From: an uncultured Holophagales bacterium
GTDB lineage: Bacteria; Acidobacteriota; Thermoanaerobaculia; Multivoradales; UBA5704
Direction: 5' to 3'
NCBI GenBank assembly: GCA_963842525.1
Contig: CAWJGT010000001.1
Span: 160,001 to 224,000 of the forward strand
DNA: 64,000 nucleotides
The position numbers and the translations under genes are program-made. The notes beneath the pieces were generated by a model. That model searched no databases and was not told the DNA's origin. It saw only the letters and a program-made list of their open reading frames with translations. Shown here piece by piece: positions 7,584 to 44,494 of this stretch. The stretch's first letter is position 1. Each line of letters starts with the position of its first letter.

Positions 7584-7710
7584 CCACCGAGCCGCACGGG
7601 TGAGCGGATCGGCCCGCCTTTCCAAGCACGGGAGGCGACCCGGTTTCCCGGGCCACCCTATCGGCCTGCCCTCCCGCCGTTGTCCGGGTAGGGTCGAGCA
7701 GGCTCGGTGG
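7584..7710 (-). ncRNA. Moco RNA motif (molybdenum cofactor riboswitch candidate)
   Basis: Minus strand reads CCACCGAGCC…CCCTA…TAGGGT GGCCCGGGAAACCGGGTC GCCTCCCGTGCTTGGAAAGG…GGCTCGGTGG. A 10-bp closing stem sits just upstream of the moaA RBS. Confidence 0.75.
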
Positions 7711-7788
7711 GCCTGGGCCTCATTCTACTCCAGGGGAGGCGGGAGGGCGAGACCCTCCCATGGCTCCATGCCTCCGGATCTCGCGGGC

Positions 7789-9513: not shown

Positions 9514-9589
9514 GGGCCGCTAGCTCAACTGGCAGAGCAGCAGACTCTTAATCTGCGGGTTGAAGGTTCGATTCCTTCGCGGCTCACCA
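9514..9589 (+). tRNA. tRNA-Lys(CTT)
   Basis: Cloverleaf with anticodon arm GCAGA-CT-CTT-AA-TCTGC, GGTTCGATTCC T-arm and CCA end. Confidence 0.95.
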
Positions 9590-9621: not shown

Positions 9622-9710
9622 GCGAAAGTGGCGGAACTGGTATACGCGCTAGACTTAGGATCTAGTCCCGAGAGATCGGGTTGGGGGTTCGAGTCCCCCC
9701 TTTCGCACCA
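9622..9710 (+). tRNA. tRNA-Leu(TAG)
   Basis: Anticodon arm CTAGA-CT-TAG-GA-TCTAG, long variable arm, GGTTCGAGTCC T-arm and CCA end. Confidence 0.95.
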
Positions 9711-11089: not shown

Positions 11090-11686
11090 ATGCTGATTCC
11101 GATGGTGGTGGAACAGACGAACCGGGGCGAGCGCGCGTATGACATCTACTCGCGCCTGCTCAAGGACAACATCATCTTCCTGGGGCGGGCGATCGACGAC
11201 GACGTCGCGAGCCTGCTCATCGCCCAGATGTTGTTCCTGGAGGCGGAGAACCCGGAGAAGGACATTTCGATCTACATCAACTCGCCGGGCGGCTCGATCA
11301 GCGCCGGCATGGCGATCTATGACACGATGCAGTACATCAAGCCGGACGTGTCGACCTACTGCGTGGGACAGGCGGCCTCGATGGCAGCGGTCTTGCTGGC
11401 GGCTGGCGCCAAGGGGAAGCGGACCGTTCTCCCCAACAGCCGCGTCCTCATCCACCAGCCGTGGATGCAGGGCCTGGGGGGCCAGCAGAGCGACATCGAG
11501 ATCCATGCCCGGGACATGTTGATGATGCGGGACCGTCTGGATGAAATCCTGGCCTTCCATACCGGCAAGTCGAAGGAGGACATCCACCGGGACACCGACC
11601 GCGACAGGATCCTGAGCGCGACGGAAGCGGTCGAATACGGGATGGTGGACCGGGTGATGCTGCGGCGGCAGTTGGCGCCGCGGTGA
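11090..11686 (+). CDS. clpP: Clp protease proteolytic subunit
   Basis: '[24 protein letters not shown]', 'YINSPGG', 'GQAASMA', 'IHQP'. Confidence 0.97.
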
Positions 11687-29901: not shown

Positions 29902-32900
29902 ATGGCCAAGATCTTCATCAGCCATTCCAGTGTCGACAATGCTGCGGCCTTGGCGGTCGCGCAATGGCTTGCTGAGAACGGTTGGGACGACTTCTTCCTC
30001 GACATCGAGCCTGCCCGGGGTCTGTCGCCGGGCGAGCGGTGGCAGGAAGCGCTCAAGGCCGCCTCGGACCGTTGCGAAGCGGTGCTCTGCCTGATCTCGC
30101 CCGCTTGGCGCGATTCGCCGTGGTGCATTGCTGAACTCTTTTTCGCGAAGCAGCTTGGCAAGGCCATCTTCGGCGCGTTTATCGAGCCTACGCCGCTGGA
30201 GAGCCTGCCGCGGGAGATGACCGCCGAGTGGCAGTTCTGTGACTTGGTCGAGGGCTCTGCCCGCCGTGTCTTCCAGGTCTGCTCGGACCCCGTCGTTCCT
30301 GCGACCGAGGTCTCGTTCGCCGTTCCAGGCTTCGAGCGCCTCAAGCGTGGCTTGCAGAGGGCGGGCCTCGATGCGGCGACCTTCCCCTGGCCTCCGCCTG
30401 GCGATCCGGACCGCGCGCCCTACCGCGGCTTCAAGGCGCTGGCGGCGGAGGACGCGGCAGTGTTCTTCGGCCGCGAGGCGGACATGGTGCGCGGGCTCGA
30501 CAGCCTGCGCCGGCTGCGCGAGCGGGATGTCGAGCGGATGCTCGTCCTCCTCGGCGCATCCGGGGCGGGGAAGTCCTCGTTTCTGCGGGCGGGACTGTGG
30601 CCGCGCCTCGGCCGCGACGACCGCCGCTTTCTTCCGCTCCCAGTCATCCGGCCGGAGAGGGCCGTCATCGCCGGTCCCTCCGGTCTGGCCGCGAGTCTCG
30701 AAGCCGCCTTCCGCAGACTGAAGCAAGCCCGCAGTCGCGCCGGCATCCGATCGGTGCTGGCCGAGCCGGGAGGGTTGGATCGCCTCCTCGCCGAGCTGCA
30801 ATCGCTCGCCAGCCACCGGCTCGGTCCCGACGCTCCTCCGCCTACCGTGGTCCTCGGGATCGATCAAGCGGAGGAGATGCTCAGCGCGGAGGGGCGGGCG
30901 GAGGCGGAAACCTTTCTGTCCCTGCTCGCACGAGCGCTCGACCCGGCGGGGAGACGTGTGATGGCTGTCCTCGCCATCCGTTCCGACTCCTTCGAGCGGC
31001 TGCAGGCCGAGCCGCTCCTGGCGCGCGCCCAGTGGGCCCTATTCGATCTCCGGCCTCTGGCCCGGGCTGAATATAAAGCGGTCGTCGAAGGGCCGGCCGC
31101 CCGGGCCACCGCCGCCGGGCGGCCGCTGCGCATCGATCCGGAGCTAATTGAACGCCTCCTCGGCGAGGCGGAAGGCGCCGATGCGCTGCCGCTCCTGGCC
31201 TTCACCCTGGAGCGGCTGTTCGTCGAGCATGGGGGGGACGGTGCGCTGAACCTCCCGGAGTACGAGGCCCTGGGCGGTCTCCGCGGCTCTATTGAGGAGG
31301 TAGTCAAGGCCGCCTTCGCCGAGCCCGGGCGCGAGCCCGCCATCCCGGCGGATGAGGCGGAGCGCACACGGCGATTGAAGGAAGGCTTCATCCCCTGGCT
31401 AGCCCGCATCGATCCCGACACCGAGGAGCGCAAACGCCGCGTTGCCCGCAGGGAGGAGTTGCCAGCGGAGTCCCGTCCCCTGATCGAGCGGCTCATCACA
31501 GCGCGCCTTCTCCTCAGTGATCGGCGCAGGGTCGGGGGCCACGACGGCGAAGTGGTGATCGTCGAGGTGGCGCACGAGGCGCTGCTGCGCCAGTGGCCCA
31601 CGCTCACCGCATGGCTCGACGAGGACGCCGCCGAGTTGAAGGCTCTGGAAGCGACGAGGCGGGCGGCCGGCGAGTGGAGGAAGAACGGAGACAAGGCTGA
31701 TTGGCTCACCCACACTGGTGATCGGCTTCGAGCAGCCGAGGTCCTGCGCCAGCGTCCGGACTTCGACCGCCTTCTTGGAGAGGAGGGGAGAGCCTATCTC
31801 AAAGCCTGCCGCCGGCGCGACGACCAACTACAGGAGGAACGGGAAATACAAGCGCGCCGCGTTGCTCGGGCGCAGCGCCGCACGTGGGTACTCCAGGCCC
31901 TCATCACAGTCATTATCCTCTGCGCTGCCATCTCGATCGTCAACCAGACGCGAAGGGTGGCGCGCCAGACCTCTTTGGTACTGGCTGCCAATGCCCTGGC
32001 GGCGAACGACGCCGGTCATCACGATCGGGCCCTGCGCCTGGCGGTCCTCGCTGCGCACGAAGGCTGGCTTTCCCCCGCGGCACCGGAGGCCGAAGCGCAA
32101 CTCGCCCGGGCAGCGCACGCATCCTCGTTGATAGCGCAGACCCGGCACATTGTCGGGGTAGACTCAGCGTCATTCAGTCCCGACGGCCGGTGGGTGGTGA
32201 GCGCCTCCTCGGACAGCGCGCGCGTGTGGGACGCGGCGACGGGAAAGGTCGTCTTCGAGGTTAACGCCGATGTTATGAATTCGATTTCGACCGCATTCTT
32301 GAGTCCTGATGGCCGGCGAGTGGTGAGCAGCTCTTTTCTCGGCGCGGTGCGTGTTTGGGACGCGGCAACGGGGAAGGCCCTCTCCGAGGTGAAAAACGCC
32401 GACGGGAGGCCCCTCTCGTTCAGTCTGGACGGGCGCCGGGGGGTCAGCGCCTCTTTAGACGGCACAGTGCGTGTGTGGGATGCGGCGACGGGCCAGACCT
32501 TTGCCGAAGTGAAGCACGAAAAGTTGGTAAAAGTGGCTTCGTTCAGCCGGGACGGGTCTCGGGTGGTCAGCGCTTCTTTAGACGGCATAGTGCGTGTGTG
32601 GGACGCGGCGACGGGCAAGACCTTTACCGAAATGAGGCACGATAAGTTGGTAACCTCCGTTTCGTTCAGTCGAGACGGGTCTCAGGTGGTCAGCGCTTCT
32701 TTGGACGGCACGGTGCGGGTATGGGCCGCCACAACGGGGAAAGTCCTCAGCGAGGTGCGTTACCATGGGACGAGCACCTTCGCCTTTTTCAGTCCGGATG
32801 GGTCTCGGGTAGTCGGCGCTTCAGAAGATGGCACAGTGCGGATATGGGATGCGGCAACGGGAGAGCCCTTGGCTGAGGTGAAGCATGATGGAAGCGTGAG

Positions 32901-34203
32901 CGCCGCATCGTTTAGCCTGGACGGTCGGTGGGTGGTCAGTGCTTCTGAGGATGGGGCGGTACGTGTGTGGGATGCGTCAACGGGAAGGACCCTGATCGAG
33001 GTAAAGCATGATGCGAGGGTAAACTCCGCATCGTTCAGCCCGGACGGGAAGTGGGTAGTCAGTGCTTCTGAGGATGGTACGGCGTGTGTGTGGAGTGCGT
33101 CGCCGGGGAGTCCCCTGGCCGAGGTGAAGAACTCTTCCGCAATGCTGTCGGTGACGTTCAGTCCGGACGGCAGGAGCGTGGTAAGTGGCTCCGATGACGG
33201 CACTGTGCGTGTGTGGGACGTGGTGACGAGGAAGCCCTTGGCCGAGGTGAAGAACTCTTCCGCAGTGCTTTCTGTGTCGGTCAGTCCAGATGGCCAAAGG
33301 GTAGTTAGCGGCGCCAATGACGGCACTGTGCATTTCTGGGACAGGTCGAGACATTCCCTTCGCGAAGCGAAGCACGAGAAGAGAGTGGGTTCTGTCTCTT
33401 TCAGCCCGGATGGCCAATGGGTGGTCAGCGCGGCTGCTTTCGGCACTGTGCGCGTGTTGGATGCAGAGACGGGAAAGTCCATCGCCGAAAACAGGAACCG
33501 GGATTTATTGTTGGTTCGAGCGTTCGCATCGTTTAGTCCAGATGGGCGGCGGGTGGTCAGCGCCGCTGCTTTCGGCACTATGCGTGTGTGGGACGCTAGC
33601 CAGTCCAATGGACAAAGGCAGGCCGACCTGCTGTTAGGCGGGAATGGCCCATCGTCCAGAGGGGGGATAGCCTCACCGATCGATCCAGTGATTTCTGCGG
33701 CGTTCAGCCTGGATGGCCTGAGGATCCTCGGTGTCACCAAGAAAGGTAGAGTGGGCGTGTGGGACGCTGGCGCGGGGAGACTCATTGCCGAAGTGAAAAA
33801 CGACGCTCAAGTGTCCTCCGCGACCCTCAGTCGTGACAATCGAAGAGTGGTTGGCGTGTTTGACGCTTTCGCGAGAATTTGGGACGCTGCCACTGGGCAG
33901 ACCCTCACCGAAATGAAGCACGAACATGAGGTGAATACTGCGTCGTTCAGTCTGGACGGTCGTAGGTTAGTCACTGCTTCGGAGGATCGCACCGCAAGGG
34001 TATGGAACACCCAGTGGCTTGCGCTTCACGGGCAGAATCTAATCGATGCCGTTTGCCGGGAAAAGCTGAACGGTGCGAAAGTCCTCTCATCTCGAGACAT
34101 CGAAGTAGCACCTGTTCTCCGTGGCCGAGAAGGCAAAGAGGTCTGCGCGCCCGCTACCTGGCTAGACCGTCTGAGAGGCTTTCTTGGCGAGCGCACCCAC
34201 TGA
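29902..34203 (+). CDS. TIR – STAND (nSTAND1-like) NTPase – TM – WD40-repeat protein
   Basis: 'KIFISHSS…SPWCIAE' (TIR); 'PYRGF..L…FFGRE', 'GASGAGKSS', 'IDQAEE', 'VAHEALLRQW'; one TM helix; more than 10 'FSPDG..VVSAS.DG.VRVWD' repeats. Confidence 0.92.
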   Translation: MAKIFISHSSVDNAAALAVAQWLAENGWDDFFLDIEPARGLSPGERWQEALKAASDRCEAVLCLISPAWRDSPWCIAELFFAKQLGKAIFGAFIEPTPLESLPREMTAEWQFCDLVEGSARRVFQVCSDPVVPATEVSFAVPGFERLKRGLQRAGLDAATFPWPPPGDPDRAPYRGFKALAAEDAAVFFGREADMVRGLDSLRRLRERDVERMLVLLGASGAGKSSFLRAGLWPRLGRDDRRFLPLPVIRPERAVIAGPSGLAASLEAAFRRLKQARSRAGIRSVLAEPGGLDRLLAELQSLASHRLGPDAPPPTVVLGIDQAEEMLSAEGRAEAETFLSLLARALDPAGRRVMAVLAIRSDSFERLQAEPLLARAQWALFDLRPLARAEYKAVVEGPAARATAAGRPLRIDPELIERLLGEAEGADALPLLAFTLERLFVEHGGDGALNLPEYEALGGLRGSIEEVVKAAFAEPGREPAIPADEAERTRRLKEGFIPWLARIDPDTEERKRRVARREELPAESRPLIERLITARLLLSDRRRVGGHDGEVVIVEVAHEALLRQWPTLTAWLDEDAAELKALEATRRAAGEWRKNGDKADWLTHTGDRLRAAEVLRQRPDFDRLLGEEGRAYLKACRRRDDQLQEEREIQARRVARAQRRTWVLQALITVIILCAAISIVNQTRRVARQTSLVLAANALAANDAGHHDRALRLAVLAAHEGWLSPAAPEAEAQLARAAHASSLIAQTRHIVGVDSASFSPDGRWVVSASSDSARVWDAATGKVVFEVNADVMNSISTAFLSPDGRRVVSSSFLGAVRVWDAATGKALSEVKNADGRPLSFSLDGRRGVSASLDGTVRVWDAATGQTFAEVKHEKLVKVASFSRDGSRVVSASLDGIVRVWDAATGKTFTEMRHDKLVTSVSFSRDGSQVVSASLDGTVRVWAATTGKVLSEVRYHGTSTFAFFSPDGSRVVGASEDGTVRIWDAATGEPLAEVKHDGSVSAASFSLDGRWVVSASEDGAVRVWDASTGRTLIEVKHDARVNSASFSPDGKWVVSASEDGTACVWSASPGSPLAEVKNSSAMLSVTFSPDGRSVVSGSDDGTVRVWDVVTRKPLAEVKNSSAVLSVSVSPDGQRVVSGANDGTVHFWDRSRHSLREAKHEKRVGSVSFSPDGQWVVSAAAFGTVRVLDAETGKSIAENRNRDLLLVRAFASFSPDGRRVVSAAAFGTMRVWDASQSNGQRQADLLLGGNGPSSRGGIASPIDPVISAAFSLDGLRILGVTKKGRVGVWDAGAGRLIAEVKNDAQVSSATLSRDNRRVVGVFDAFARIWDAATGQTLTEMKHEHEVNTASFSLDGRRLVTASEDRTARVWNTQWLALHGQNLIDAVCREKLNGAKVLSSRDIEVAPVLRGREGKEVCAPATWLDRLRGFLGERTH

Positions 34204-36620: not shown

Positions 36621-37520
36621 ATGGACCGAGACCCGAACGTCCGTTTCCTCGTCAATCCAGCGGCCGGGCGCGGCGCGGCCCGCGACTGCATCGACCGCCT
36701 CCGCGTTCTGGCGTCCCAGGCGGGCGCCGGCCTGGTGATCACCCGTAGGGTGGGCGACCTCGCCGAGCAGGCCCGCAAGGCGGCCGAGGACGGGGTCGAG
36801 CGGCTGCTGGTCGTCGGCGGGGACGGCACGGTGCATCAGGCGATCCAGGGGCTGGCCAACACCTCCTGCGCCCTGGGTGTGGTGCCGTTGGGCTCCGGCA
36901 ACGACCTTGCCGCGACGCTGGGAGTTCCCCGCGACCTCGAGGTGGCGGTCCGACAGGCGCTGATGGGACCGCTCCTGTGGATGGATCTGCTCCGCCTGGG
37001 GGAGACCTTCTCCGCCAGCTACTTCGGGCTCGGCTTCGACTCGGAGGTGACCCGGGTCGCGAATCAGGTGAAGCGGCTGCGCGGGCCGCTCATCTACCCG
37101 TATGCGGTCTTCCGCACCCTCGCCTCCTTCGAGCCGCCTTCCTTGAAGATCGTCCACGACGAGGGCACCTTCGAAGGGCGCGTGATGTTCACAACGGTGG
37201 CCAACATCCCCCGCTTCGGAGGGGGCATGCAGATCGCCCCCATGGCCGACTTCGACGACGGCCTGCTGGACCTGGTGATCGTCAAGGCGATCTCCAAGCT
37301 CAAGCTGCTCACGGTTTTCCCCAAGGTCTACGGCGGGAAGCACGTCGGCCATCCGGCCGTGACCTTCGCCCGTACGCAACGGGTGGAGATCACGGCCGAT
37401 CGGGAGTTGGAGATTTATGGCGGCGGCGAGCCGGTGCGGCCGATTGCGGCGGGAGAAACTGCCGTCGTGGAGGTCGTGCCGGGTGGGCTGCGGGTGGTAG
37501 GTCGCCCCTCACCCCCCTGA
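36621..37520 (+). CDS. Diacylglycerol/lipid kinase family protein (YegS/BmrU-like)
   Basis: 'NPAAG', 'GGDGT', 'PLGSGNDLA', 'FGGG', 'DDGLLD'. Confidence 0.9.
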   Translation: MDRDPNVRFLVNPAAGRGAARDCIDRLRVLASQAGAGLVITRRVGDLAEQARKAAEDGVERLLVVGGDGTVHQAIQGLANTSCALGVVPLGSGNDLAATLGVPRDLEVAVRQALMGPLLWMDLLRLGETFSASYFGLGFDSEVTRVANQVKRLRGPLIYPYAVFRTLASFEPPSLKIVHDEGTFEGRVMFTTVANIPRFGGGMQIAPMADFDDGLLDLVIVKAISKLKLLTVFPKVYGGKHVGHPAVTFARTQRVEITADRELEIYGGGEPVRPIAAGETAVVEVVPGGLRVVGRPSPP

Positions 37521-37562
37521 CCCCCCTCTCCCATCCGCACTCACACCCACCGGGAGAGGGGG
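37505..37562. repeat. CCCCTCACCCC…GGGAGAGGG palindromic repeat
   Basis: Same motif as 51914-51972 and 55785-55941; supplies the kinase stop codon. Confidence 0.65.
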
Positions 37563-37571
37563 GAAAAGTCT

Positions 37572-37941
37572 CTAGGGTGCGACCTTGAACTCCACGCCCT
37601 GGGCCAGCGGGAGGTCGGCGCCCCAGTTGATCGTGCAGGTCTGCCGGCGCATGTAGGCCTTCCAGGAGTCGGAGCCCGCCTCGCGTCCGCCGCCGGTCTC
37701 TTTTTCGCCGCCGAAGGCGCCGCCGATCTCAGCTCCCGATGTGCCGATGTTGACGTTGGCGATGCCGCAGTCGCTGCCGGTCGCCGCCAGGAAGCGCTCG
37801 GCGTGCCGCATGTTGAGCGTGAAGATCGCCGAGGAGAGCCCCTGCGGCACGCTGTTGTGGATGCGGATGGCCTCGTCGAGGTCGTCGAACTCGAAGACAT
37901 AGAGGATCGGCGCGAAGGTCTCCTCGCAGGTGATCGGCATC
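37572..37941 (-). pseudogene. Duplicated 3' fragment of the aldehyde dehydrogenase gene
   Basis: [11 protein letters not shown]…QGVEFKVAP* is nearly identical to the last 122 aa of 42953-44494. Confidence 0.9.
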
Positions 37942-38195: not shown

Positions 38196-38410
38196 GGCCC
38201 CGGAGGGGCCCATGGCATGTAGCCCGGGGCCAGAGCGAGGAACGAGCGGCGGCCCCGGGTCTGGAAACGAAAATATTCCCAAGCCCCGGAGGGGCGGCAG
38301 CAGACCGATAAGGCACAGGCTTGCTGCCGCCCCTCCGGGGCTTGAAGATTTTTGGGCCTCTCTACCCGGGGCCGCCGCTCGTTCCTCGCTTTGGCCCCGG
38401 GCTACACGCC
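38196..38410. repeat. Long nested-hairpin element (REP/PATE-like)
   Basis: GTAGCCCGGGGCCA…GGCCCCGGGCTAC outer arms enclosing AAGCCCCGGAGGGGCGGCAGCA…TGCTGCCGCCCCTCCGGGGCTT. Confidence 0.75.
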
Positions 38411-38440
38411 TGAGCCTCTCTAAGGCTCTTTTTTTGCAAC

Positions 38441-38656
38441 AACCGTCTTCACTCACGACCTCGACTTCGGCCACCTGCTCGCGCTCACGCATGCTGCCGG
38501 CCCCAGCGTTATCCAGGTCCGAGCCGAGGACGTGTTGCCCGCGAGCATCGGCTCGGTCGTCCTCCGCGCATTGCGCCAGCACCACGAGCTATTGGCATCA
38601 GGGCGCTTGTAGTCATAGAGCCTGCCGATTTCAGAGTCCGTATCCTACCAATCTAA
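38441..38656 (+). pseudogene. DUF5615 (PIN-like toxin) C-terminal remnant
   Basis: 'VFTHDLDFGHLLAL…PSVIQVR' then a frameshift then 'ALVVIE…RVRILPI*'. The 5' part is lost at the hairpin element. Confidence 0.7.
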
Positions 38657-38673
38657 AGTCAATCTCCTTTGCC

Positions 38674-38732
38674 GCCGAACGTGGTTGGTGCTCACCGGCG
38701 GCGTCAGCCGTCCCCTGCATGCCCTGGTAGGC
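38674..38732 (-). other. attC-like site (59 bp)
   Basis: On the minus strand after the stop: CCGATCGCCTACC…imperfect hairpin…GTTCGGC. Confidence 0.6.
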
Positions 38733-38747
38733 GATCGGTTGAGATAT

Positions 38748-39305
38748 TTACATTGGTCTTAGGTCCTCGGGACCATTGACTGCCATTCCGATGGCGAAAA
38801 GCTGCGCCGAGCGTTCGCCGGCCAGTTTGGCGAGCGATGGGTTTTGCTTAAGGTCACGGCAGAACTGGTTCGCGGCATCATGAATAGCCTCGAGGAGCGT
38901 TGTTAAAGGTACAACTACGATACTGGCGGCTTCACCTGAGCCTGCCAATAAGCGATGCATGGTGGGCTCGTCCTCGGGTGTTCCGACGAGGAAGATACGC
39001 CGCGCTTGAGCCGACTCGCTGTAGCGAGACCGTGGGGATTGCGTGTGAAGCAACCCACAACGGAAGGCGTAGAGTTCGAGTGACGTACAGGCTAGATTTG
39101 AGAGTGGGTGGAGATATGCGTCGCACCAAGCGACGAAATGCTCCGGTTTAACCTTCGGAGCGCTCAAAGGCCGGGACAGCCACGCCATGGTGTCGATGGC
39201 CATGAGAGAGAGTGAGAGCGCCGGCAGCCATTTCCCGGATCTGCTACAAAGTTCAGAGCCATCGATGAGATCTAGGATCCGATCTTCTGCAGTCTGAAGG
39301 GACAT
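38748..39305 (-). CDS. Cassette gene: putative HEPN-domain protein
   Basis: Helical protein with an R-x4-H motif 'LYAFRCGLLH'; lower GC; bounded by attC-like sites. Confidence 0.65.
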   Translation of the reverse strand: MSLQTAEDRILDLIDGSELCSRSGKWLPALSLSLMAIDTMAWLSRPLSAPKVKPEHFVAWCDAYLHPLSNLACTSLELYAFRCGLLHTQSPRSRYSESAQARRIFLVGTPEDEPTMHRLLAGSGEAASIVVVPLTTLLEAIHDAANQFCRDLKQNPSLAKLAGERSAQLFAIGMAVNGPEDLRPM

Positions 39306-39321
39306 GATTATTTACCCGGTC

Positions 39322-39392
39322 GCCTAACCACTGTTGCTGCTCAGCAGCCAGGAAGCGAAGCTTTCTGGTCCGCTGGAGCAGCCTGGGTAGAA
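39322..39392 (-). other. attC-like site (71 bp)
   Basis: R' GTTAGGC. The bottom (plus) strand folds GCTGCTC-AGC…CCAGGAAGC-GAA-GCTTTCTGG…GCT(G)GAGCAGC with an extrahelical G. Confidence 0.75.
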
Positions 39393-39402
39393 GGTGCGCC
39401 AC

Positions 39403-39918
39403 TCATTGGTACGCCTTCCACACTCGTGCAGACAGAAGGAGCAGGAAACCAAGCATGAGGAGGTAGTACCGAACCGCATACCAGCGTTCGGCTTTCTTGC
39501 CGATGTCCTTCTCAACTGTCCTGGCGATCTCCAAGATCGTCTGCCGATTCTCGAGCAAGGCCCCGATCTTCTCAACATTCATGACCTCGCCAGTATCGGA
39601 GTCGGCTACGGGAATGCCTCCTTGCAGCGCCGTCGAAAGTCTCTCGACAGACTCCAGGTTTTTGAGTTTCTCGACGCCGACACGCTGAAGGTGCACAGTG
39701 GACTCAATTCTCTTGAATGCAGCAAACGCGGCGCCCACGAGCGTCAGCATGGCTACTAGCTCTAAAGTCGTTGAATTCCAGCCCAGTTTGGCCGGCTGGA
39801 GCATTGGCGCTAGGTACCCCAACACAGCGGTGGATAGACCTGCCATGAAGTAGTCGAACTTCTCGGCTGAGTCTCGCCAGAACTCGTAAGCTCGGTTGCT
39901 CCCATTCTCGGTCATCAA
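39403..39918 (-). CDS. Cassette gene: ~3-TM membrane protein
   Basis: RBS AGGAG; three hydrophobic segments; bounded by GTTAGAAGG at the start and the attC-like site at the end. Confidence 0.7.
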   Translation of the reverse strand: MMTENGSNRAYEFWRDSAEKFDYFMAGLSTAVLGYLAPMLQPAKLGWNSTTLELVAMLTLVGAAFAAFKRIESTVHLQRVGVEKLKNLESVERLSTALQGGIPVADSDTGEVMNVEKIGALLENRQTILEIARTVEKDIGKKAERWYAVRYYLLMLGFLLLLSARVWKAYQ

Positions 39919-40078
39919 TTGCTCCTAGCCCTAGCCCAGCCCGCGCCTTCTAACCTCATCGTGAACTTCTACCCACCCCGCCGGCAGTTTGCCTCGGGCC
40001 TGCTTCCGGCTTCCAAATCCGCGGGAACGAGGTGCATCGCCATGCCTCTATGTGCTTTACCTAATTATACTTAGGGCA

Positions 40079-40107
40079 AGCCTACGTTGTTCCACGATTT
40101 TCGTCAA
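40079..40107 (-). promoter_or_regulatory. Pc-like promoter facing the cassette array
   Basis: Minus strand TTGACG-N17-TAGGCT, plus a TATAAT at 40069-40064, upstream of the first GTTAGAA site (39954-39948). Confidence 0.5.
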
Positions 40108-40442
40108 TGGCTCAGTGATTGGCCGCCTATGGGAGTCGGGCCATAGATGGCCCGGTTTGCTTTGGAATTGGGAGAGCGGTGCGTGCGGCTCCGGGGTTGG
40201 AAGGCGCTGCTGCCAAAGAGCTTACAGGCATCGGCCCCACCTCTGGGGCGGCGGCATGGACGGTCACCGGCCGACCGCCCATGCCGCAGGGGACTGGTTT
40301 TACGCAAAGACTTCCAGAGAGTTGAGGCGGACAGGCGCAGCCCTCTTGACATCCTGCCTTCCTCATCCCTATCATGTGCTGCGGGTCGATTTCGATCCAG
40401 AGTATCATCAAAGACCGATGAGGAACGAGAGGAGAGAAGAGA

Positions 40443-40748
40443 ATGACTGAATTCGCCTATGTAGGGACGCTGGGAGCACTGCCGTGGCTCATCGCCGCGC
40501 TGGCAGGCATGTGCGTCCGCAACGAGGCGATCCAGGCAATTCCTTCAGGAGCAGCCCTTCCGTGGCCGCAACCGCGCCAGCAGCGCTGCAATGCCGTCGT
40601 CTGTTCCCGCCACTTCCGCAGTCGATCTGCTGGGGCTCCGTTCCCCCAAAGCCAGGCGGCGGCGCAGCGGCGCAGCGGCGCAGCATCCCTCCGGCTGCAG
40701 GCAATCAGCCCGTATCCACTGCAGAGACCGTTACCGGCGCCAGCGTAA
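40443..40748 (+). CDS. Hypothetical or degenerate ORF upstream of the 19-bp repeat array
   Basis: Preceded by TTGACA-N18-TATCAT (40346-40375) and a GAGGAG RBS; no recognisable domain. Confidence 0.3.
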   Translation: MTEFAYVGTLGALPWLIAALAGMCVRNEAIQAIPSGAALPWPQPRQQRCNAVVCSRHFRSRSAGAPFPQSQAAAQRRSGAASLRLQAISPYPLQRPLPAPA

Positions 40749-40769
40749 GTCTTCCGGCGCGGATCAGCG

Positions 40770-41188
40770 TATCCGCTACAGCTCAGCGTATCCGCCGCAG
40801 AGAACGCTATCCGCCGCAGATACCCTTATCCGCCGCAGATACCCTTATCCGGCGTAGATAGCGTTATCCAGCCCAGATAAGCTTATCCAGCCCAGATAAC
40901 GCTATCTGCGGCGGATAAGCGTATCTGCCGCAGATAAGCTTATCCAGCGCAGATAACACTATCCGCCGCGGATAACGTTATCCGCGGCGGATAAGCTTAT
41001 CCGGCCCAGATAAGGCTATCTGCCGTAGATAAGCTTATCTGCCGTAGATAACGCTATCCGCCTCGGATAAGCTTATCCGCCGCAGATAAGCTTATCCGGG
41101 CCAGAATAAGCTTATCCGGCGTAGATAAGCTTATCCGCCGCAGATAACGCTATCCAGCGCGGCCAGGCTTATCCGGAACAGATAACAT
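40770..41188. repeat. Tandem array of ~22 palindromic 19-bp units
   Basis: Consensus TATCYGCCGCAGATAAGCT (TATCY-N5-RGATA-N4). Degenerate units extend to about 40713 and 41260. Confidence 0.92.
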
Positions 41189-41292
41189 CCTCTGCCGTAG
41201 ACACGCCTATCCATGCCGTCCAAGCTCATCCGTGCCGCTGCAAGCTTATCTGGAGAAGCTACCGAAATCGTGCCGGGAGAGCACCGGTTGAA
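41173..41292. repeat. ~120-bp direct repeat (copy 2 at 42812-42931)
   Basis: ACAGATAACATCCTCTGCCGTAGACACGCC…GAGCACCGGTTGAA occurs in both places with few mismatches. Confidence 0.9.
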
Positions 41293-41415
41293 GGTGCCGA
41301 CCGCGGCGAAAACGACGGCGCGCAGGGCGAGGTCGGCGTCGTCCATGACCAGGATGCCGTTGTTGCCGCCGAGCTCCAGGAGGGCGCGGTCGAGGCGGTC
41401 GGCCAGGACCTTGCC
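41293..41415 (-). pseudogene. Internal fragment of the aldehyde dehydrogenase gene
   Basis: 'GKVLADRLDRALLELGGNNGILVMDDADLALRAVVFAAVGT' matches 43604-43732. Confidence 0.85.
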
Positions 41416-41461
41416 CCCTTGCCGCAAAGTCCGCAAAGAGCTAGCTCTCCGAGGCCTTGCA

Positions 41462-41506
41462 TGTAGCTACAGGGGACTTGACGCCGGATCTTTTTGTAGC
41501 TACATT
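41462..41506 (+). promoter_or_regulatory. brnTA promoter with two TGTAGCTACA palindromes
   Basis: TTGACG(41478)-N17-TACATT(41501); perfect palindromes at 41462-41471 and 41495-41504. Confidence 0.7.
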
Positions 41507-41512
41507 CGGCGC

Positions 41513-41791
41513 GTGGCCGCTTGGGATGAGCAGAAACGGCAAGCCAACCTCCGCAGCCACGGGCTGGATTTCGACGGATGCGAAGCGGTGTTCGACCATC
41601 CTGTCGTTACCCAGGAGGACTCCCGCATGGCCTACGGCGAGCAGCGGATCAACCTGCTCGGCTGGTTGCGCGATCGAGTCGTCCACATGACCTATACGGA
41701 GCGCGGGGAGGAGCTACACGTGATCTCCCTGCGGGAGGCAACCAAACATGAAGTCCGGTACTACTTCAAAGCCATTTCCGATGAAGCCTGA
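41513..41791 (+). CDS. brnT: BrnT-family toxin
   Basis: 'WDEQKRQANLRSHGLDF…YGEQR…TERG…ISLREATKHE'. Confidence 0.88.
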   Translation: MAAWDEQKRQANLRSHGLDFDGCEAVFDHPVVTQEDSRMAYGEQRINLLGWLRDRVVHMTYTERGEELHVISLREATKHEVRYYFKAISDEA

Positions 41792-42068
41792 AGAAATCAC
41801 CTCTGCAATCGCGATGGCGCCGGAGCGAGTTGACGACCCGGAATGCCCTTATGACCCCAACGACCCTGCAGCAGTGGAGGCGTTTTGGAAGAACGCTACC
41901 GTGCTTCGACCCGGGCAGCGCGGACCGGGAAGAAGAGCCAAGAAGATCCTGCTCTCAGTGCGGTACAGCCCAGAGGTCGTAGAGTATTTCAAGTCAACTG
42001 GCGAAGGGTGGCAGACACGCATGGACGAGGCGCTCAAGGAATGGATGACATCTCATCGCGCGGAATGA
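41781..42068 (+). CDS. brnA: BrnA-family antitoxin
   Basis: 'RGP…K…SVRYSPEVVEYFKSTGEGWQTRMDEAL'. Confidence 0.88.
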   Translation: MKPEEITSAIAMAPERVDDPECPYDPNDPAAVEAFWKNATVLRPGQRGPGRRAKKILLSVRYSPEVVEYFKSTGEGWQTRMDEALKEWMTSHRAE

Positions 42069-42165
42069 TCGTTGTACTCAGTCGCGGTGGAGCATCCAGG
42101 TCTTGGCTGCGCCCAACGCCCTTCAAGCTGAGCGACCGGCGCAGCCGGATCGCTCCGGCGCGGGG

Positions 42166-42405
42166 TTAAACGGCCACTCGCACGTGCTCACGGAGAAACT
42201 CAGGAGCGAGATCGGCACCGTTCTCCCACCCCAGCGTGTGATAGGAAAGCGTGAAGCGCTTGAATAGCTCGACGTCCCGGAGAGGACCGAAGACCGGACC
42301 ATCCAGCTCTTCACTCAGATCGACCTCGCCACAAGTGCCATCGTTGAAACGCAACCAGACTATGTGGTCACGCACATACCGCGCTTCTAAGACATGCAGA
42401 AACAT
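42166..42405 (-). CDS. DUF2442 protein
   Basis: 'ARYV…LRFNDG…VDL…GPVFGPLRD…TLGWENGADLAPEFL'. Confidence 0.85.
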   Translation of the reverse strand: MFLHVLEARYVRDHIVWLRFNDGTCGEVDLSEELDGPVFGPLRDVELFKRFTLSYHTLGWENGADLAPEFLREHVRVAV

Positions 42406-42408
42406 AAG

Positions 42409-42543
42409 CTACTCCAGCGGGTTAATCGGCTTCAGCGGAAGCTTGTGCTGCGCGAGCCGCCAGTCTTCCGCAAGCTACTCCTGACTCGATCTCAACGGTA
42501 ACCTCGAACTCCCCGTACTCCGCGTGGAAGTGACCTGGAGCAT
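42409..42543 (-). pseudogene. DUF4160 remnant
   Basis: 'HAPGHFHAEYGEFEVTVEIESG' then an internal deletion then 'EDWRLAQHKLPLKPINPLE*'. Confidence 0.65.
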
Positions 42544-42549
42544 GATCCC

Positions 42550-42770
42550 GCCCCGAAGGGGCAAAGGCGTAAAGCCTGGGGTTTCAACCCCAGGACCGCG
42601 ACCCAATCCAATCCTCAGCCCCGAAGGGGCGACGGCATGGGCGAGGGGCGCGAGCCCCGCTGTCGGGTGGCTGGTGGAGAATGCCTGCGCCCCTTCAGGG
42701 CTCCCAGGAAATTTGGGGGCGCCAACCTGGCGCTGAAGCGCCAGGCTTTATGCCCAGGCCCCTTCGGGGC
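42550..42770. repeat. Long nested-hairpin element (REP/PATE-like)
   Basis: GCCCCGAAGGGGC…AAAGCCTGG…AGCCCCGAAGGGGCG…CGCCCCTTCAGGGCT…CCAGGCTTT…GCCCCTTCGGGGC. Confidence 0.75.
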
Positions 42771-42952
42771 CTCCCAACCGAAGCCGAGCGAATCTGACAA
42801 AGTAGAATTAGCCGGTACAGATAACATCCTCTGCCGTAGACACGCCTTTCCACGCCGTCCGAGCTCATCCGTGCCGCTGCAAGCTTATCTGGAGAAGATA
42901 CCGAAATCGTGCCGGGAGAGCACCGGTTGAACCCGCTTTGCCAAGCCGGGAC

Positions 42953-44494
<1,542 letters not shown>

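Follow-up and report, generated by a model that had tools for sequence, protein, structure and literature searches.

We analyzed a 64,000-nucleotide stretch of DNA, hereafter the window, from an uncultured Holophagales bacterium (GenBank assembly GCA_963842525.1, contig CAWJGT010000001.1, here C1, positions 160001-224000), and in it a variable islet of 5.4 kb that lies between a diacylglycerol-kinase-like gene and an aldehyde dehydrogenase gene and carries integron-type gene cassettes on its minus strand. On either side the islet is bordered by a copy of the 3′ end of the aldehyde dehydrogenase gene (37580-37879 against 42961-43260, 96% identical), and its GC content over 38550-40200 is 0.56-0.58, compared with 0.65-0.73 in the flanks. 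Read along the minus strand, a cassette made of a truncated DUF4160 gene and a DUF2442 gene ends in an attC site and is followed by a reversed BrnT/BrnA pair; about 2 kb of non-cassette DNA leads to open reading frame (ORF) 171, attC site A, ORF185 and attC site B, and the last cassette is a reversed, truncated DUF5615 toxin gene. The region 38439-42547 is very probably a CALIN (cluster of attC sites lacking an integrase), that is, a short cluster of integron gene cassettes that kept attC sites but has no integrase, and one that is decaying. The features are listed below, where R1 denotes the attC covariance model described after them.

37572-37940, minus strand: left border of the islet, formed by the second copy of the aldehyde dehydrogenase 3′ end (PF00171, profile positions 362-460)
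38439-38609, plus strand: 3′ half of a DUF5615 (PIN-like) toxin gene, reversed (PF18480, profile positions 50-103 of 110, E = 4.9e-7; translation)
38674-38732, minus strand: attC site B, degraded, R″ GCCTACC, R′ GTTCGGC (R1, 18.0 bits, E = 7.9e-3)
38748-39305, minus strand: ORF185, cassette gene of an uncharacterised family (ESM Atlas hypothetical-protein clusters, 0.96)
39322-39392, minus strand: attC site A (R1 match 39323-39392, 34.8 bits, E = 5.1e-8)
39403-39918, minus strand: ORF171, cassette gene, predicted membrane protein of an uncharacterised family (ESM Atlas clusters, 0.97)
39942-39954, minus strand: R′ half-site GTTAGAAGGCGCG with which the ORF171 cassette starts; it borders non-cassette DNA, and no attC body lies upstream (R1 search)
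39966-39975, plus strand: the 10-mer CTTCTACCCA (site A's R″ with its odd ACC) repeated perfectly in inverted orientation, 12 nt upstream of the ORF171 cassette start (exact-match count)
41522-42068, plus strand: BrnT toxin and BrnA antitoxin genes, reversed relative to the cassettes (PF04365, E = 5e-22; PF14384, E = 1.4e-17)
42111-42171, minus strand: third attC site, R″ canonical GTTTAAC, R′ GTTGGGC (R1, 21.5 bits, E = 6.8e-4)
42166-42405, minus strand: DUF2442 gene, 79 amino acids, its stop within the R″ box of the next attC (PF10387, E = 2.7e-11)
42425-42547, minus strand: DUF4160 gene, 5′-truncated, first gene of the DUF4160-DUF2442 cassette (PF13711, profile positions 12-47 of 65, E = 2.6e-5)
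42953-44494, minus strand: full-length aldehyde dehydrogenase gene, right border of the islet (repeat comparison)

The attC sites were identified with R1, which was built from 23 attC sites beside true integron integrase (intI) genes in three genomes of the same family and was run with filters off over the whole 64-kb window. Three matches were obtained below E = 0.01; they share the minus strand, fit into 3.5 kb, and each of them is located where an ORF has its 3′ end. The next-best match had an E-value of 0.38. Site A, with the R″ box TTCTACC, the L boxes GCTGCTC[C]AGCG / CGCTGAGCAGC and the R′ box GTTAGGC, is identical at 57 of 71 positions to a site in the array of genome G097 (L041:5959-6027) and at 56 of 71 to one in that of G090 (L044:14157-14226). 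Site B shares 49 of 63 positions with a site of G166 (L042:12473-12533), and in the R1 alignment its mutated L″ box breaks two L-box pairs. The third site closes the cassette of the truncated DUF4160 and DUF2442 genes, so that the array extends past the one first described, with a further attC and further cassette genes at 41522-42547. GTT is kept in R′ at all three sites; AAC is kept in R″ only at 42111-42171, and sites A and B read ACC there. The two low-GC minus-strand ORFs that the first-pass annotation saw ending in attC-like sites (39403-39918 and 38748-39305) are confirmed, and its call of integron-type cassettes in an integrase-less array is borne out by the homology of these sites to attC of intI-linked arrays in genomes of the same family.

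These arrays also show what a site of this lineage looks like. Integrases above the curated cut-off of TIGR02249 were found in 64 of the 201 genomes sampled from the order, and in G090, G097, G166 and G058, all of the same family, intI scores 468-481 bits (cut-off, 265). Their arrays share the strand of intI and are located 3′ of it, with 17, 13, 9 and 4 R1 matches, respectively. A structure heuristic applied to the 5′ side of intI in five relatives gave no arrays, because the arrays of this family lie 3′ of the gene, and a direct-repeat search beside intI gave none because the sites are too heterogeneous. The structure scan was calibrated on three kinds of control: cassettes of class 1 integrons carried by four plasmids, the 36 sites of an array on a plasmid of Gemmatirosa, and a plasmid integron of Kovacikia. 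These controls also show that an array can sit 3′ of intI. In family sites, the R″ box ends in AAC and is separated by 4 nt from an L″ box of 11 nt that has a single extrahelical base followed by GAC; then come a variable loop, L′ and, after a spacer of 7 nt, GTT. In the 23-site alignment, compensatory changes were seen at 8 of the 13 predicted pairs, and all 10 L-box pairs were unbroken. The AAC/GTT ends, the extrahelical base followed by GAC and the variable loop are common to the attC of class 1 integrons (aadA2, aadB, dfrA12, gcuF, blaVIM-4), Gemmatirosa and Kovacikia; unlike these controls, whose spacers are 5 and 6 nt, the sites here have spacers of 4 and 7 nt and an L stem longer by 2 bp. 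The long L′-R′ spacer reported at first sight is thus real (7 nt, with 4 nt between R″ and L″, against 6 and 5 nt in the controls), but it is a property of the lineage and not a novelty of this locus.

The same geometry affects detection. We built a proxy covariance model (R2) from 20 canonical sites, 11 of them from one array; it is our own and differs from the model of IntegronFinder. R2 detected 12 of the 43 family sites at E-values up to 0.05 and scored the window sites at 13.4 and 12.6 bits (E of about 0.1 in 10 kb), which is not significant. Conversely, R1 recognized 16 of the 36 Gemmatirosa sites and none in three class 1 loci. It is plausible that standard attC models could miss the window sites, and a lineage-specific model was needed to detect them here; the weak R2 scores would be due to lineage-specific spacing and decay and not to a new recombinase.

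The borders of the cassettes agree with the sites. The ORF171 cassette starts with GTTAGAAGGCGCG at 39954-39942 (minus strand) and ends with GCGCACCTTCTACC at 39399-39386 (minus strand), 10 bases past the stop; the ORF185 cassette starts with GTTAGGCGACCGG at 39328-39316 and ends with CCGATCGCCTACC at 38738-38726, and GTTCGGC follows at 38680-38674, all on the minus strand. Every string cited in the first-pass annotation, including the TACC ends and GTTCGGC, was found on that strand where it had been placed. As had been claimed, the start of each cassette is complementary to its own end; this holds at 11 of 13 positions, and both cross-pairs reach 6 of 13, so the complementarity is specific to each cassette and not merely a common consensus. 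The remnant described as a reversed PIN toxin corresponds to the C-terminal half of DUF5615. At the left border of the ORF171 cassette, R1 found no match upstream of 39954 at E-values up to 10, and the ORF171 cassette begins with a bare GTT half-site on non-attC DNA. Insertion at a secondary site and breakage of an older array would both produce such a border, and the two fit equally well.

Sites A and B differ from their relatives in R″, and the comparison makes ACC a private feature. Among the 43 array-strand sites of the four relatives, R″ reads AAC in 42 and ACC in none. In the own genome, R1 gave at least 54 matches, a lower bound that comes from 150 first-look candidates that were scored; AAC is present in 47 of them by position, or 48 with one one-base register shift, and site A is the only true ACC. 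When the genome was scanned for L boxes blind to R″ and R′, 27 candidates were found, 19 of them with GTT, and 17 of these 19 had AAC, the exceptions being site A and one CAC. The change can be read as A to C or as the loss of one A from TAACC, and pairwise alignments favor a substitution at site A and a deletion at site B. Since the AAC/GTT triplets are the best-conserved part of attC, as Cury et al. (2016, PMC4889954) describe, ACC in the two R″ boxes is most simply read as a private point lesion by which both sites would be damaged, and with the conserved triplet lacking in R″ we call A and B decaying attC. The structural hallmarks of attC are present: an imperfect palindrome, an L″/L′ helix with an extrahelical base, and homology to intI-linked arrays. 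A soil-metagenome contig (X1) spans 38511-38888 with zero differences and reproduces site B, though X1 may come from the source sample and is therefore not independent. The public reads consist of short contigs from two soil-metagenome runs only, which leave R″ of site A unbridged, so TACC there is neither confirmed nor refuted by them.

No working integrase was found to serve these sites. No IntI of the own genome reaches the TIGR02249 cut-off, and the window has no match to this model at all, in agreement with the first-pass annotation; on C1, matches lie at 401508-402362, the nearest, and at 591489-591689. An intI remnant is found on contig C9 (1070692-1077562, L050), where it is split by an IS21-type IstA/IstB element into pieces covering model positions 94-174 and 168-215, the second of which holds the IntI-specific motif around ...KYPRAAAEWGWQ. 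After a frame-disrupted stub, with which the remnant ends, five attC sites follow directly on the same strand. The C9 locus is the former integron of this genome, whose intI was lost to the IS21 element and a deletion. The attC sites, at least 54, are spread over at least 34 loci, as 12 clusters of 2-5 sites and 22 singles, and the genome is thus one with a dead integron and widely scattered cassettes. Two group II introns (RF02005 D1-D4 with RF00029 domain V/VI) start at the R′ end of an attC, at C3:360398-362500 (L053) and C25:512276-514400 (L054), and their junction string is also present at C11:179877-179937. We take these introns to resemble the group IIC introns that target attC, and their position at R′ ends may serve as an independent sign that the attC sites are genuine.

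The locus compares well with CALIN as defined by Cury et al. (2016, PMC4889954), who also propose origins for them. Their definition asks for at least two attC on the same strand less than 4 kb apart; three are present here with a largest gap of 2.7 kb, and no integron integrase gene lies nearby. Cassettes of unknown function together with toxin-antitoxin genes, and several clusters in one genome, are further likenesses to the CALIN presented there. Unlike these, two of the three sites here carry a lesion in the R″ triplet, and the array is broken by non-cassette DNA and inverted-repeat elements. A complete integron does not fit, as the window has no intI, no consensus promoter facing the array and no R1 match upstream of 39954. 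The Pc-like promoter proposed in the first-pass annotation was not supported, since a consensus scan of the minus strand gave no sigma-70-type site upstream of 39954; the one perfect TATAAT seen there, at 40069-40064 (minus strand), has no acceptable -35 element at 16-18 nt. By eye, the attI regions of G090 and G166 show no evident similarity to the DNA upstream of 39954. Without attI or a Pc promoter, expression of the cassettes would need read-through or promoters inside them.

Several observations weigh against a decaying CALIN. The assembly is 96.4% complete, and a working intI could be in the missing part. Two of the three sites lack the conserved AAC, site B reaches just 18 bits, and the R2 scores of the window sites are not significant. 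About 2 kb of non-cassette DNA interrupts the array, and the BrnT/BrnA pair has no attC after it. No attC was detectable beside the homologues of ORF171 in G242, G170 and G182 (best, 11.7 and 11.3 bits), which counts against a strict cassette linkage of this gene. Finally, the same lesion in neighboring sites, together with a 10-bp inverted copy of R″, is not the simplest outcome of random decay.

From site homology, L-box covariation, cassette geometry, the lack of a working intI and the lesions of the sites, we infer a history of delivery for this decaying cluster. IntI would once have delivered or shuffled the cassettes, either by insertion at secondary genomic sites or in an array that later fragmented. 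The intI gene of the genome would have died afterwards, rearrangements and small repeat elements would have cut the array, and the ACC lesion in two R″ boxes would mean that the ORF171 and ORF185 cassettes are now probably frozen.

Alternatively, the cluster could still be a usable reservoir. ACC would then be tolerated, for example because T bulges out of the folded R box, and ORF171 and ORF185 could be excised by an IntI acting in trans. We consider this unlikely. In its favor, all three sites retain GTT in R′, site A has preserved its L boxes and their extrahelical base, the two bases adjoining R″ and R′ in site A can pair (CA with TG), and cassettes of CALIN have been argued to be mobilizable in trans in Cury et al. 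(2016, PMC4889954). Against such a reservoir, AAC/GTT is described in the same work as the most conserved part of attC, and site B has lost two L-box pairs. The mismatch also adjoins what we take to be the cleavage point, and no intact intI was found in the genome at 96.4% completeness.

The shared ACC raises a second alternative, in which the lesion is not random. The 10-mer CTTCTACCCA has two exact matches in the window, where 0.06 are expected, and the second is the perfect inverted copy upstream of the ORF171 cassette; site B has no ACC-type inverted partner. The inverted 10-mer may have arisen by chance, by a templated quasi-palindrome mutation, or by duplication of an R′ box in which the loss of one base was compensating. 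It leaves a small probability for a non-random origin, in which the R box would have been remodeled by a templated process, for example quasi-palindrome correction or compensating losses of one base, or lesions that lock useful cassettes would have been selected after the loss of the integrase. If this were true, cassette-locking lesions would be a route by which cassettes become fixed chromosomal genes.

The first-pass annotation instead read the TACC...GTT sites with a long L′-R′ spacer as a divergent type of integron, served by an unrecognized recombinase, and this now seems very improbable. ACC is common to both neighboring sites, and a perfect 10-bp partner of the ACC-type R″ lies upstream of the ORF171 cassette. 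Moreover, the genome encodes three identical 284-amino-acid XerC/IntI-like recombinases without the IntI patch (238.9 bits on TIGR02249, cut-off 265), at C3:356782-358800, C9:1900160-1900969 and C25:538791-539600 (L001-L003), each within about 3 kb of attC sites. However, ACC occurs in none of the 43 array sites of the relatives and in none of the other 53 genome matches listed, site B has no ACC-type partner, and the 4/7 spacing is shared with sites beside canonical integrases of 468-481 bits. Each copy of the patch-less recombinase is paired with an IS91-family transposase (Y2_Tnp and Zn_Tnp_IS91), of which it would be a companion gene, and the three are most simply explained as copies of an insertion sequence. 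The search for more sites of the TACC geometry in the genome and its relatives, which the first-pass annotation had itself named as the test of its proposal, gave none, and the claim of novelty fails on it. That the hairpins are unrelated elements, such as terminators or repeats resembling repetitive extragenic palindromes (REP), that look like attC by chance is scarcely credible: the genome is rich in GC-rich palindromic repeats, such as the 65-nt element at 37504-37568, and taken alone the sites fold with modest z-scores (-1.8 and -1.2). Against it, R1 gave E-values from 5.1e-8 to 7.9e-3 for three sites that share one strand and lie at ORF ends, site A is 80% identical to attC of intI-linked arrays, and the start of each cassette specifically complements its own end.

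As a decaying CALIN, the cluster can be placed among known systems. It has the same attC type as the integrons of its relatives, site A being 80% identical to array sites of G097 and G090; unlike them, it has neither intI nor attI, and the counterpart of such an integron in the own genome, on C9, has its intI destroyed. The layout of these relatives, with the array 3′ of intI, matches the arrangement termed inverted integron-integrase in Cury et al. (2016, PMC4889954). Loot et al. (10.1101/2022.09.11.507474) report the insertion of cassettes at genomic attG sites and the formation of SALIN (single attC sites lacking an integrase) and small CALIN by attC × attG recombination. The left border of ORF171, a bare GTT half-site on non-attC DNA, resembles the insertions described there, as does the number of single sites, 22 of the at least 34 attC loci of the genome. 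Unlike in such insertions, the right border here has been lost to truncation, so that no attG junction is visible.

Little can be said about the cassette genes from their families. ORF171, ORF185 and a 101-amino-acid ORF at 40443-40748 had no significant family in PADLOC, Pfam or NCBIfam. ORF171 and ORF185 resemble sizeable ESM Atlas clusters of hypothetical proteins, with values of 0.97 and 0.96, and are probably real genes. For ORF171, hints of the effectors SLATT_1 (E = 0.039, 13.9 bits, cut-off 41) and PycTM (Atlas, 0.78) were seen and are leads only, on which we do not rely. Their distribution in the order is patchy, as homologues of ORF171 were found in 4 of 300 genomes and those of ORF185 in 3 of 300, with the own genome counted in both. 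In G157, the homologue of ORF185 is followed by one further ORF and then by an attC of 43.5 bits. An alignment search with ORF171 returned only the two relatives already known, and single-protein locus scans gave nothing for ORF185 among genome contigs and nothing for ORF171 among metagenome contigs.

The place where the cassettes lie is itself variable. The two genes that flank the islet are about 0.2 kb apart in G295, enclose unrelated inserts of about 2.9 kb in G297 and about 4.2 kb in G296, and are on different contigs in G299, where attC sites (62.3, 30.8, 49.9 and 24.3 bits) lie about 5.4-6.8 kb from each; all four genomes belong to the same genus. Because this arrangement differs among them, the gap between the two genes is a variable spot within the genus, with cassettes detectable in at least two of six genomes. 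Within the islet, an inverted-repeat element at 38214-38410 (89-nt arms) truncates the DUF5615 gene, and another at 42550-42770 (55-nt arms) truncates the DUF4160 gene. A motif resembling the latter was also seen near the integron of G166 (L022:10340-10389 and 11126-11175). We also observed a third copy of aldehyde dehydrogenase sequence at 41169-41415, with an internal deletion and 95-98% identity to 42808-42931 and 43641-43732; it points to repeated rearrangement of the islet.

Other features were observed in and around the islet. At 40715-41150, next to the ORF at 40443-40748, a 19-bp unit is repeated in tandem about 23 times. The units are rich in the palindrome GATAAGCTTATC, occur in both orientations and resemble an array of protein-binding sites. 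The 65-nt palindromic repeat at 37504-37568 is similar to REP elements or miniature inverted-repeat transposable elements (MITE), and accounts for nearly all of the 76 matches listed in the own genome (G000) for the query 36621-37940 and for most of the 46-72 in each genome of the genus. Farther away, 29902-34203 encodes a 1433-amino-acid protein with an nSTAND1 NTPase domain and a WD40 beta-propeller, whose N terminus is TIR-like by eye only, and which is a candidate defense or signaling NTPase. An Rfam scan placed a molybdenum-cofactor riboswitch and two tRNA genes at 7599-7721, 9514-9586 and 9622-9707.

Taken alone, the locus is a matter of routine annotation, as it adds another integrase-less cassette cluster to an integron-rich lineage. 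The genome around it, with one dead integron and at least 54 attC over at least 34 loci, is a possible case study of array fragmentation and site decay. In addition, this work documents a lineage-specific 4/7 attC geometry that is poorly found by a model built from canonical sites, and the cassette content of soil lineages of this kind may therefore be under-counted.

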